From: Candidatus Omnitrophota bacterium
Lineage (GTDB): Bacteria > Omnitrophota > Gorgyraeia > JAHJTE01
Assembly (NCBI GenBank): GCA_040753675.1
Contig: JBFMEB010000001.1
Location: 32,498-96,497, forward strand
Direction of reading: 5' to 3'
DNA length: 64,000 nucleotides
This document shows positions 17,997 to 31,625 of this stretch, piece by piece. The position numbers were made by a program, and so were the translations under genes. Within the stretch, counting starts at the first letter, position 1. Each line of letters opens with the position of its first letter. Under the pieces are notes generated by a model. That model ran no database searches. It was not told the origin of the DNA and saw nothing but the letters and a program-made list of their open reading frames with translations.

Positions 17997-18121
17997 AAAT
18001 GTTAGTCAAAAGTTGTCATACAATTGTCATACTATTGTCATATATTGTTTTTGCAATGTATGACCATATTTGACTATTTATGACTATGTATGACTTATTA
18101 GTATCTGTGCTAATCTGTGTT
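17997..18121. promoter_or_regulatory. Helically phased array of GTCA/TGAC half-sites: 3x TTGTCATA at 18013-18041, then 4x TATGAC at 18059-18096, all on a 10-bp register
   Basis: Read directly from the sequence: tgaccatatt tgactattta tgactatgta tgacttatta, with TGAC at 18061, 18071, 18081 and 18091. Confidence 0.5.
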
Positions 18122-28971: not shown

Positions 28972-30537
28972 TTATCGACATTGAATCTGAAATTGCCTAA
29001 CCACAAAATCATCGACCGAAGATTGACTCACGGAACTAAGGACAATCTCTTTAAAACCCTCTTTAAAGAGAGTATCTGAACGCAAATTATTTAGCAGTTG
29101 ATTAATCGCTGGTAACTCATCCTGGGACATCTCTAAATAAGCGAAACCTTCTAAATTTATTTCTAATGAATTTAAATCTTTCCTAAAGTTAAGACGCTCT
29201 AACCAAACACCTTCTGGCAGTAGTTTGCTTAAACGTTCTATTTTTTCTGTTAAGTAGACTTTCTGGCTAATCGTAGATTTAATTTGACTAAGTTCTCCTT
29301 TTAAAGATTCCTTTATCTTTTGCAAATCATTTAGTTCTAAGTTGGCACCTTTAAGGGCAAAAATACTTTTCCCTTTTAGTGTGACAAGATCAGAAACCTG
29401 TTTTTCAACTCTCTTTACTTTTATGTTACCCCAAAACCATATTAAAAAAACCATGCTTGTTAAGACTGCTACGGAGATAGCGTATTTCTTAAATGTTGTC
29501 TTCGAAATAAAAGTTTTTGATATTGCTTCAAATTGTGGCTGTGCCTTCTTAATTTGCGGCTCTTTTCTAAGAAGATTCAAATCAATAGGAAACCTTACTA
29601 TTTGTCTTAGCGAGGCGCCCGCTGCTTTAAGCAAATCACAATGTGCTCCTTCAATATTCAAGAGCTTGCCTGCCTCAAATGAGGCACATTTTATACCCAA
29701 TTCCTGCGTTATCATTTCTGCCCAAGAAATAACTTGGTTAGAGTCTGAAAAAAGATAAATATTTAAGATATTATTCTCTCGCCTATTCTGTCTATGTCTA
29801 AAATAATCAATCGAAATTCTAATTTCATTTACTAATTTAGATAGTACAGCCTGAGTTTCCTCTGAGCCGCCTATTGGCATAGATGAAGTCAGGCTTATAT
29901 CCCTAATAAAACAAGGCAAACCAGAATCTAAGATTATAATATCGCCGTTAGACAAATTAGAGTCTATATCTACAATTAAGGCACCTCTCTTTCCTTCTCG
30001 ATTTAACTTGGTCTTTATATAAGCTAAACGTAAAAAACTCAAAGATGATGGCTCAAGCGACAAAATATTAAAACCCACCTGGTTAAATACTTTAATATAC
30101 TTATCAATGATCTTCTTTTTAATTGCCGCAAAAATTATTTCTAAAGATTTAGCATCCTTTCTTTGGCTAATAAATTTAAATATTAATTCCTCAATTCTAA
30201 AAGGAATGTATTTTCTGGCTTCAAAATTTACTGTAGAATCCATGTCCTTTTTTGAAACAACCGGTATGTTAAAAAACCTTACCAACACGTCAAAAGCAGG
30301 CAAGGCAATATGTGCATCACGAGAACTAAAATCATTTTCTCTTATTGCCTTTTGTATTACTGCGGCGAATTTAATATCATCTTCAGATATCTCATCTAAA
30401 CTAGCCCCAAAAGAGGAAAGACTCTGTCTGCAATGCCTTCTAATTTCTTTGCCGGCAAATTCAACAATGCTTAATGCATCCTGGCCTAAATAAATTCCCA
30501 ATTGCGTCTTTTTAAGACTTTTTATTAATCTTTGCAT
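28972..30537 (-). CDS. pilM: PilM-PilN fusion protein (actin-like ATPase domain + TM + PilN-like periplasmic domain); start set at MQRLIKS
   Basis: N-terminal PilM-like region (LGIYLGQDALSIVEF...), TM helix AISVAVLTSMVFLIWFWG at about residue 375, coiled-coil C-terminus. Confidence 0.65.
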   Translation of the reverse strand: MQRLIKSLKKTQLGIYLGQDALSIVEFAGKEIRRHCRQSLSSFGASLDEISEDDIKFAAVIQKAIRENDFSSRDAHIALPAFDVLVRFFNIPVVSKKDMDSTVNFEARKYIPFRIEELIFKFISQRKDAKSLEIIFAAIKKKIIDKYIKVFNQVGFNILSLEPSSLSFLRLAYIKTKLNREGKRGALIVDIDSNLSNGDIIILDSGLPCFIRDISLTSSMPIGGSEETQAVLSKLVNEIRISIDYFRHRQNRRENNILNIYLFSDSNQVISWAEMITQELGIKCASFEAGKLLNIEGAHCDLLKAAGASLRQIVRFPIDLNLLRKEPQIKKAQPQFEAISKTFISKTTFKKYAISVAVLTSMVFLIWFWGNIKVKRVEKQVSDLVTLKGKSIFALKGANLELNDLQKIKESLKGELSQIKSTISQKVYLTEKIERLSKLLPEGVWLERLNFRKDLNSLEINLEGFAYLEMSQDELPAINQLLNNLRSDTLFKEGFKEIVLSSVSQSSVDDFVVRQFQIQCR

Positions 30538-30542
30538 AACTA

Positions 30543-30640
30543 ATTCACGAATTCTCACGAATTGCACACAAATTCTCACGAATAAATTCCGATGATAAAT
30601 TCGTGTTTATTTGTGTGTAATTAGTGTCCGTTCGTGTTCC
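30543..30640. promoter_or_regulatory. Operator-like repeat cluster: 3 direct CACGAAT repeats plus inverted ATTCGTG, inside a 19-bp imperfect palindrome cacacaaaTTCTCACGAAT / ATTCGTGtttatttgtgtg
   Basis: CACGAAT at 30546, 30556 and 30577; ATTCGTG at 30599; a further TTCGTG at 30631. Located between the HTH gene and the pilM start. Confidence 0.5.
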
Positions 30641-30671
30641 ATTGGTTTTGAAATTATCAATAACATAATCC

Positions 30672-30854
30672 TCACTCAATTCTTTGCTCATGCTCCCGAA
30701 GCCATTTATCCACACTCTTCTTGTCGAATCTCCACACACCGCCAACCTTAATTCCAGAAAATTTCTTCTGATTTAACCAATTGTAAATAGTCTGTTTACC
30801 TAAACGTAAATAGTCAGCTAATTCTTGGATATCCATTAATCTTGACATAAGCAA
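30672..30854 (-). CDS. Excisionase-family / MerR-like helix-turn-helix DNA-binding protein (60 aa)
   Basis: MDIQELADYLRLGKQTIYNWLNQKKFSGIKVGGVWRF matches the AlpA/Xis-type HTH_17 pattern. Confidence 0.65.
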   Translation of the reverse strand: MLMSRLMDIQELADYLRLGKQTIYNWLNQKKFSGIKVGGVWRFDKKSVDKWLREHEQRIE

Positions 30855-31079
30855 CCCTTTAGTTATTGAGTTAAATTTTGTTAAAGTCTATTTTACCTTA
30901 AGTATAACAGAATTCATTTAAACATAATAATATTACTTTGTCAATAAAATTTTAATAAATTTTTATTTAGATTTACTTAAACTTACTTATAAATTTTCTT
31001 AACATATTGTAAATTAAATAGTTATAAAAACTAATAATTAATATTTGAATCTTAATTTAATTGAATAATAATGGTTGGA
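30855..31079. promoter_or_regulatory. 225-bp extremely AT-rich intergenic region (probable promoter / curved DNA) upstream of the HTH-pil operon
   Basis: More than 80% A+T with A/T tracts; no ORF. Confidence 0.4.
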
Positions 31080-31403
31080 TTAAAAAGAGAGGTCAGTTGT
31101 TACGTCTAATTGTCCTGAGAAGGAATCGTGAGTTATGGTCACATCTTGTCCGTTTATAGTTAAATTTGGAGTTATTGGAGCTGCTGGATTATTAAAAAGT
31201 TCATCATTTGCCTGAACAATAGCAGCTTGGCTGGAATAAAATCCTATAATTCGCCTGACTTGTCTTTCAATTAGCCTTGCTTGGTTTGTCATTAAAAAAA
31301 TACTGGTAACGGCAACCATAGAAACTACTATTATAAAAATTAAAACCGTGACCATTGCTACTGCTTTTGTTGTGTAAAAGTTTCTAAAAAATAAATTTTT
31401 CAT
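31080..31403 (-). CDS. PilX N-terminal-domain-like small membrane-anchored protein
   Basis: AVAMVTVLIFIIVVSMVAVTSIFLMTNQARL resembles the PilX_N hydrophobic segment; 107 aa. Confidence 0.4.
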   Translation of the reverse strand: MKNLFFRNFYTTKAVAMVTVLIFIIVVSMVAVTSIFLMTNQARLIERQVRRIIGFYSSQAAIVQANDELFNNPAAPITPNLTINGQDVTITHDSFSGQLDVTTDLSF

Positions 31404-31409
31404 AAATGC

Positions 31410-31625
31410 CTAATTCTCGACCTTACGCAAGGTTATACAATACCCTTGACCTTCATCGGCTAAAATTACGTGCCCTTCCCTCGCTAACCAACCGATACTC
31501 ATTAGTAATAAATCACGAGGTTTGTCAATATTAGAAAATAGATCATTTAGCTTAGTTTTACCGTGGCTGTCAAGATAATGCCAAATATCCCCTGCTGCTA
31601 TACCGATTTCAGTAATCATGTGCAC
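31410..31625 (-). CDS. Small winged-helix protein (DUF2582-like), 71 aa
   Basis: IGIAAGDIWHYLDSHGKTKLNDLF...GWLAREGHVIL pattern. Confidence 0.4.
   Translation of the reverse strand: MHMITEIGIAAGDIWHYLDSHGKTKLNDLFSNIDKPRDLLLMSIGWLAREGHVILADEGQGYCITLRKVEN

Follow-up and report, generated by a model that had tools for sequence, protein, structure and literature searches.

A CACGAAT repeat cluster at the start of pilM in a Candidatus Omnitrophota genome is probably the core of a mobile palindromic repeat and not the operator of the adjacent excisionase-type gene

What is a dense cluster of the heptamer CACGAAT doing between a small helix-turn-helix (HTH) gene of the excisionase family and pilM, in a type IV pilus assembly operon? 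We analysed this question in 64,000 nt of Candidatus Omnitrophota bacterium GCA_040753675.1 (contig JBFMEB010000001.1, positions 32,498-96,497, forward strand), which is called the window here and to which all positions below refer unless a locus is named. A preliminary description of the window had taken the CACGAAT palindrome for the HTH protein's own operator. We are fairly confident of a different answer: the cluster is probably the core of a mobile, TA-flanked palindromic repeat lying in the start of pilM, and the HTH gene is a separate, conserved gene of the operon. What we observed comprises the insertion, several copies of the repeat, the way the arrays are built, and their association with a nuclease gene.

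Counting both strands, CACGAAT occurred eight times in the window, compared with 4.6 expected from shuffles, and four of the eight copies fell within 30546-30605 (30546, 30556 and 30577 on the plus strand and 30599 on the minus strand). With a background of 4 copies per 64 kb, the probability that some 60-nt stretch of the window holds four copies is about 5e-7. The three direct copies and one inverted copy described earlier between the two genes were found at these sites. The 19-nt imperfect palindrome described with them corresponds to 30565-30583 / 30599-30617 (16 of 19 matches by eye) and proved to be part of longer inverted-repeat arms, 30546-30583 / 30599-30636, which are 38 nt long, 76% complementary and separated by a 15-nt loop. 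When one mismatch was allowed, each arm contained four heptamers at spacings of 10/11/10 nt, mirrored about position ~30591. Block shuffles gave 0.08 arrays of CACNRAT/ATYNGTG units spaced 9-11 nt apart, whereas the window contains three. The parts of the array are as follows.

30546..30583, plus strand: array arm 1, with CACGAAT, CACGAAT, CACAAAT and CACGAAT at 30546, 30556, 30567 and 30577
30584..30598, no strand: loop of 15 nt; its minus strand has TATCAT, a weak -10-like hexamer
30599..30636, plus strand: array arm 2, inverted, with ATTCGTG, ATTTGTG, ATTAGTG and GTTCGTG at 30599, 30609, 30620 and 30630

The spacer between the HTH gene and pilM, which had been given as 130 bp, does exist, but it measures 134 nt from the HTH stop (30674-30672) to ATG 30537. 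We compared it with nine related Candidatus Omnitrophota loci (L001-L009), which were retrieved from the HTH side and span 72-86% HTH identity, and with L010, a separate sister assembly whose HTH protein is identical to the window copy. The 134-nt spacer was confined to the window and L010; the repeats were absent from L001-L009, and the distance from HTH stop to pilM start was 3, 27, 1, 7, 6 and 2 nt in L001, L003, L004, L007, L008 and L009, respectively. These empty sites, HTH-pilM junctions that do not contain the element, were seen in different species only. The features around the junction are:

28972..30537, minus strand: pilMN fusion gene (Pfam PilM_2 + PilN)
30525..30660, minus strand: palindromic repeat element containing no gene, ~136 nt, TTGATAA...GATTAA, with TA flanks at 30662-30661 and 30524-30523
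30664..30666, minus strand: relic pilM start ATG, 5 nt (ggatt) past the HTH stop TGA 30674-30672, with a GAGG Shine-Dalgarno-like motif upstream

The element is short and non-coding, and its inverted ends consist of the 38-nt arms (76%) and the termini TATTGAT/ATTAATA. The relic ATG now opens an upstream open reading frame (uORF) of 19 codons (MLLIISKPMEHERTLITHK), which terminates at TAA 30609-30607, within the 5' hairpin arm. Through in silico removal of the element and one TA, the sequence became ATG TTA AAA AGT, that is MLKSLKKTQLGI, which fits the PilM N-termini of the relatives in both length and sequence. The present pilM ATG (30537-30535) and codons 1-5 (MQRLI) lie in the element's conserved 3' end. 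Within the repeats, GTG 30579 offers a second start in the same frame, and its equivalent was evidently used in the L010 gene call (535-aa product); neither ATG 30537 nor GTG 30579 has a good Shine-Dalgarno sequence. Judged from the N-terminal length, ATG 30537 is favoured, which was also the start chosen in the preliminary description and agrees with the N-termini of the relatives.

The comparison suggests that, only in this lineage, the element entered codon 2 of pilM at a TA. The insertion would have moved the old pilM start 129 nt upstream, and the 3' end of the element would supply the new in-frame ATG 30537, and the annotated pilM start, together with the disagreement between gene callers over it, appears to be the result. 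In the ancestral state the HTH gene would have been translationally coupled to pilM. The element would break this coupling, would probably lower or uncouple PilMN translation, and would force the use of the element-borne ATG. In the pil mRNA it may be a tolerated passenger with a long imperfect hairpin and no designed function.

Through BLAST and alignment, we found that the window sequence ~30663-30522 recurs in L010, L034, L048 and L078, and that the similarity ends outside it. Three of these copies, nearly identical to that of the window, stood at unrelated sites of one related metagenome-assembled genome (MAG), JAZDFF01:

L034: element copy between a PTS-IIA-like gene (ptsN) and the HPr gene
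L078: element copy between two genes which we take, from their open reading frame (ORF) translations alone, to be ybeY and recO
L048: element copy inside a prepilin gene

TA was present on both flanks in four of the five element copies, and L078 has TC on one side. Excising the element and one TA from the L048 pilin restored MTANKKALTLLE, a prepilin N-terminus that scores with Pfam N_methyl at residues 4-27. In this locus (L048:3535-4377) the long form of the element is in frame and has no stops, in the prepilin leader region (MTA...element...NKKALTLLE); processing by prepilin peptidase, which would cut off the lengthened leader, might make the insertion tolerable. The L010, L048 and L078 copies carry a 71-nt internal module that is absent from the window copy, and the window copy appears to be a deletion derivative of a ~207-nt form. 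The module is a nested palindrome (L010:1223-1293, in the 5' arm of the element) and reads CCCCGTGG...GGGACTAAAGTCCC...AAATTGCAATTAAAATTGCAATTT...GGGG. Scans of metagenomes for the Omnitrophota-specific 5' end gave zero matches and then ten chance matches.

These results bear directly on the operator explanation, in which the palindrome is a dedicated operator of the 58-aa HTH protein and controls pilMNOPQ. Excisionase-type winged-helix proteins bind phased direct repeats (λ Xis at X1/X1.5/X2), and the heptamers here are phased by 10-11 nt; a weak -35/-10 match (9 of 12) also falls in the palindrome, the loop of which contains TATCAT. However, the nine syntenic loci keep the HTH gene at 72-86% identity and have no repeats, and the same sequence is found at the unrelated ptsN/HPr, ybeY/recO and pilin loci. 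The same heptamer arrays also occur in other phyla, around a different gene and where there is no pil operon, and the motif conserved at the operon promoter is another one, TAAGTAA in three copies. We regard the palindrome as a highly improbable operator of the HTH protein, and this tempting regulatory model, with the repeats as operator, is removed for this locus.

The other parts of the preliminary description of the HTH gene fared better. It had placed an excisionase-type HTH gene just upstream of pilM, and the protein matched Pfam HTH_17 (PF12728; E 2e-16, 60.3 bits, cut-off 27) and TIGR01764 'excise' (47.3 bits, cut-off 28.8). The closest solved structure was mycobacteriophage Xis 4j2n (E 0.03). 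A length of 60 aa from TTG 30854 had been given; the gene itself stands, but the protein is 58 aa from ATG 30848 and the TTG start is no better supported.

30672..30848, minus strand: HTH_17 / excisionase-family gene, 58 aa, ATG 30848 (Pfam, TIGR01764, synteny; alternative TTG start 30854)

It had also proposed looking for the same small gene in related pil loci, and we found it directly before pilMN-pilO-pilP-pilQ in 9 of 9 related Omnitrophota loci fetched, and also in L010. A functional excisionase gene would have an integrase alongside and lie within an integrated element; no integrase or mobile-element gene was found among the neighbours of the HTH gene in the window and the nine relatives. 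With this and the conserved gene order, the proposal that the HTH protein is dedicated to the pilus operon and not to a mobile element stands. More than 1080 homologues of the HTH protein were found, and the best 120 of these were 66-86% identical and mostly named Omnitrophota; a protein identical to that of the window bears the name of a Candidatus Omnitrophota MAG. Identity to the window copy in the relatives was 72-83% for HTH, 28-49% for PilMN and 24-46% for PilO. The HTH protein is conserved well above the level of the Pil proteins, which makes it reasonable to see it as dedicated to the pilus operon, and the synteny indicates that its gene is a conserved promoter-proximal member of the Candidatus Omnitrophota pilMN-pilO-pilP-pilQ operon. 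A pilMN-first synteny search of genome contigs gave no match, and a literature search on Omnitrophota, pilM and excisionase returned nothing relevant.

Most likely, the HTH protein is a small transcription factor acting at the conserved promoter upstream of its own gene. The features of this region are:

30963-30989, minus strand: three 10-nt-phased direct repeats upstream of the -35 hexamer, TAAGTAA 30989-30983, TAAGTAA 30979-30973 and degenerate TAAATAA 30969-30963
30916..30944, minus strand: sigma-70-like promoter read from the sequence, TTGACA 30944-30939, a 17-nt spacer ending TGT, and TTAAAT 30921-30916
30899-30893, minus strand: fourth unit, AAGGTAA, downstream of the promoter

The promoter consensus scan preferred an adjacent 9/12 match over the TTGACA-17-TTAAAT site; the form TTGACA-17-T(C/T)TAAT, with TGn before the second hexamer, was present in the upstream regions of L001-L010. 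Three upstream units of (A/G)AGTAAnTnT, plus one unit downstream of the promoter, were kept in 10 of 10 related upstream regions. In the 64-kb window the TAAGTAA-type motif has a single tandem occurrence (0.28 in shuffles). The three TAAGTAA units are, from this conservation, the best candidate operator of the pil operon, and would be bound by the HTH protein; more broadly, the repeats are a candidate operator for the HTH_17 or the DUF2582 protein, the latter encoded two genes upstream of the HTH gene. The sister assembly (L010:536-1001) has ~240 nt extra upstream of the HTH promoter.

Another explanation is that the hairpin was exapted as a cis-regulatory RNA, either as an RNase III-type processing or stability site, or as a gate melted by the uORF ribosome that frees the pilM start. 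A 151-nt minus-strand stretch with both arms folds at -33.7 kcal/mol (z -2.35), and 4 of 200 shuffles folded as well. The uORF stop lies inside the 5' arm, as mentioned, and 8 nt separate the end of the 3' arm from ATG 30537. One compensatory change (CACAAAT / ATTTGTG) was found relative to L010 and L048. The Correia elements of Neisseria, mobile-element hairpins that are processed in mRNAs, provide a precedent. On the other side, the z-score is modest, and the 71-nt module splits the 5' arm in the sister L010, so that the neat hairpin is not conserved even between both carriers. There is no U-run, and therefore the hairpin is not an intrinsic terminator; no intrinsic terminator-like site was found in 30300-31500. 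The copies also lie in either orientation relative to the host genes. We consider an exapted RNA role unlikely.

The reading of the cluster as the core of a mobile repeat gains from its distribution outside Omnitrophota. The exact 17-mer CACGAATTCTCACGAAT was found at no fewer than 120 genome loci (at least 120) in about 10 phyla, often on several contigs per MAG; its hosts include Planctomycetota, Verrucomicrobiota, Omnitrophota, Lentisphaerota, Chloroflexota, KSB1, Desantisbacteria, Flavobacterium, Heliobacteriaceae and others. The typical array is composed of (G)CCACGAAT-n3-CACGAAT-n3-CACGAAT, a loop of 1-84 nt, and ATTCGTG-n3-ATTCGTG-n3-ATTCGTGG(C). An inverted partner unit lay 150 nt away or less in 89 of the 126 17-mer matches, where 0.13 units were expected, and the unit spacing was 9-11 nt. 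The outer spacers paired at 26 of 57 positions, versus 18.3±3.6 when shuffled, and the inner spacers at 10 of 66. Because the heptamers are conserved and the spacers are mostly non-complementary, selection seems to act on the phased heptamers and not on a continuous duplex.

The genes around the arrays showed no orientation preference (28 co-directional, 10 convergent and 8 divergent), and on this ground a terminator-like or promoter-like placement was dropped. At gathering score, Rfam 15 gave no match in the window or in 18 array loci from six phyla, and at permissive thresholds only sub-threshold microRNA-hairpin noise was obtained in 30450-30950. DnaA boxes, parS, pho-box-type sites, DNA uptake sequences and ω-heptads could each be set aside because their sequence or distribution does not fit. 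The literature search by heptamer sequences returned only CRISPR, primer and unrelated matches.

All ORFs of the 17-mer loci were clustered to seek a recurrent neighbour gene. Only one ORF cluster adjoined the arrays, a ~125-aa protein of the PDDEXK_3 / TIGR04256 'GxxExxY' family. Larger ORF clusters, considered as transposase candidates, were rejected as ordinary oxidoreductase, kinase, ABC ATPase, PilB-like ATPase and sigma-54 activator families. All four PDDEXK_3 ORFs among the matches listed adjoin arrays (L060, L098, L103 and a fragment in L129) and belong to four phyla; in L098 and L060 the GxxExxY gene lies between the left and right arrays. When we started instead from homologues of the L103 protein, arrays stood on both sides in 4 of 4 independent loci with DNA, namely Kuenenia L141, Planctomycetes L151-L160, L161, and L162-L165 between gatA and gatB. 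The inverted repeats around the GxxExxY ORFs are 28-34 nt long and 82-90% complementary, and the bracketing arrays are typically bounded by TTAGCC...GGCTAA, likewise at TA. The start codon of the gene often overlaps the last heptamer, as in CACGAATG. The array-bracketed proteins scored 98-133 bits against TIGR04256 (cut-off 35), and D73, E83 and K85 are invariant in the GxxExxY proteins, leaving the D...ExK site intact. More distant GxxExxY genes, on large plasmids, are co-oriented between housekeeping genes (fabD, fabG) and bracketed by other units, CACAGAG in Bacteroides and Bernardetia and CACGGAT in Treponema.

In L162 (gatA-X-gatB), L169 (fabD-X-fabG), L170 and L172, the GxxExxY gene was co-oriented in very short gaps between or inside housekeeping operons; such placement suggests that these genes depend on host transcription. 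The Kuenenia gene occurred in two upstream contexts (L142 / L148 vs L141) that diverge exactly at the start codon, one of them having no left array, and this difference points to a rearrangement at the array. Close homologues were mostly on contigs of 0.5-3 kb, consistent with the gene and its repeats breaking metagenome assemblies. At least 8000 GxxExxY / PDDEXK_3 homologues were found. The family is given the function 'Unknown' and 'multiple transfers' in a published account (PMC3424549), and in the literature searched we found no description of repeats flanking its genes.

These loci share a common plan. The ends of the class are inverted arrays of two to four CACGAAT-type heptamers about one helical turn apart; in full-length members two arrays bracket the ~125-aa GxxExxY / PDDEXK_3 gene, and in gene-less copies, such as that of the window, the two arrays are brought together as a hairpin-forming palindrome. 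We propose that the GxxExxY nuclease would bind DNA at the phased heptamers, with one heptamer for each helical turn, and would mobilise both full-length and gene-less copies. We might speculate further, giving the idea somewhat less than an even chance, that GxxExxY genes with heptamer ends are unrecognised minimal (~0.5 kb) selfish elements, which insert at TA, co-oriented between housekeeping genes or into their first codons, use host-operon transcription and leave gene-less palindromes in at least 10 phyla; the pil repeat would be one derivative, and the ~125-aa protein would recognise the arrays.

Several observations weigh against the mobile-repeat reading or its extension to the nuclease. 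No GxxExxY gene was found in the window or in any fetched Omnitrophota locus, so mobilisation here would have to act in trans, and no autonomous partner with the Omnitrophota-specific termini was found among the fetched loci. We know of no transposase that consists solely of a ~125-aa PD-(D/E)XK domain. A flanking inverted repeat above all shuffles was found in 10 of 16 bacterial GxxExxY loci and in 0 of 17 viral homologues; with this shortfall in both groups, the array link holds for a subfamily and not for all of PF13366. Viral contigs did not contain the exact 17-mer either, and in view of the viral PDDEXK_3 homologues, which likewise stand without inverted repeats around them, we dropped the idea that the arrays came from phages. 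Only one element copy is present in the 64-kb window, and its TA could belong to the terminal inverted repeat instead of being a target duplication. The C-to-T change of the window copy (ATTTGTG), which restores pairing with CACAAAT, hints at selection on the hairpin. Finally, beyond the arrays the Omnitrophota copies carry additional conserved segments at their termini.

The last point leads to the explanation that an ordinary DDE transposase which targets TA (IS630/Tc1-mariner type) moved the repeat, with the arrays as incidental cargo and the GxxExxY association as a separate matter. The Omnitrophota copies could have been moved in this way by an IS630-like enzyme. It would fit that four of the five copies have TA on either side, that short inverted repeats (TATTGAT / ATTAATA) form their termini beyond the arrays, and that no GxxExxY gene was found in the fetched Omnitrophota sequences. 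Yet no IS630-like gene with these ends was found among the fetched sequences, and the arrays that bracket GxxExxY genes are TA-bounded too. In L028, which also belongs to the JAZDFF01 MAG, CACGAAT palindromes have other flanks, so the arrays are the recurrent core, which speaks against the transposase explanation. We judge it quite unlikely.

At the locus itself, the minus-strand order by Pfam is PilX_N-like, HTH_17, PilM_2+PilN fusion, PilO, PilP-like, secretin, pilB-like and pilC-like ORFs. In L001-L009 the order is TPR, ExbB, ExbD, two unknowns, DUF2582, PilX-like, HTH, PilMN, PilO, PilP and PilQ. The gene preceding the HTH gene is:

31403-31080, minus strand: PilX_N-like gene, followed by a 231-nt intergenic region before the HTH gene

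The DUF2582 winged-helix protein (71 aa, window 31410-31625) is unusually conserved as well, the relatives being 56-79% identical to the window copy. Its gene is syntenic in every fetched locus that extends to this position, and the protein is possibly another small DNA-binding partner of the pilus locus. All real-looking ORFs of the window are on the minus strand, and likewise the RNase P RNA (4303-4659) and three tRNAs. A second palindromic array, of the same architecture but with another unit, was found at window 18005-18120, where it is flanked by a pilin-like gene (18568-18122) and by the start of an uncharacterised one (17996-17385). It contains TTGTCATA three times at 10-11 nt and a loop ATTGTTTTTGCAATG, continues with TATGAC inverted about four times and then ATCTGTG twice, and folds as RNA at -27.1 kcal/mol; no further full copy was found among the fetched loci.

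Two consequences may be considered. Type IV pilus assembly genes are paired phylum-wide with a protein of excisionase fold, a candidate pilus regulator in Omnitrophota, whose pili are believed relevant to their host-dependent lifestyle. The array class accounts for intergenic palindromes from Planctomycetota to Flavobacterium, which probably also break metagenome assemblies, and the array link provides a testable function for the large GxxExxY / PDDEXK_3 family, listed as of unknown function.

Compared with known systems, the HTH protein resembles the excisionase family (Xis/AlpA-type, TIGR01764) in hidden Markov model membership, size and nearest structure (mycobacteriophage Xis). Unlike excisionase genes, its gene has no adjacent integrase, stands outside a mobile element, and opens a type IV pilus assembly operon, conserved at 72-86% across the phylum.

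As to the element, miniature inverted-repeat transposable elements (MITEs) that land inside operons are known, such as Correia/NEMIS of Neisseria and the IS630-derived Nezha of cyanobacteria. The element is like them in being small (100-220 nt), having no ORF and having inverted ends that form a hairpin when transcribed. It probably also shares with them the TA at both flanks, the dispersed copies and the presence or absence among close relatives, and it may likewise alter the expression of neighbouring genes. It differs in that its ends are 7-nt units every 9-11 nt with non-complementary spacers and not a plain inverted repeat, in that the gene between such heptamer-array ends encodes a ~125-aa PD-(D/E)XK protein and not a DDE transposase, and in that one heptamer is common to about ten phyla. 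From the GxxExxY family (TIGR04256 / PF13366) the window holds only the repeat and no gene.

The repetitive extragenic palindromic (REP) sequences and REPINs, with their RAYT genes, are also short palindromic intergenic repeats with many copies and no orientation preference, and they too have one partner gene flanked by the same repeats. Neither CACGAAT nor ATTCGTG appears in the REP survey PMC3733652. The arms of the element have no GTAG or CGTC tag and are composed of phased heptamer arrays, and its proposed partner is a PD-(D/E)XK nuclease (GxxExxY), whereas that of REP sequences is an HUH Y1 transposase.

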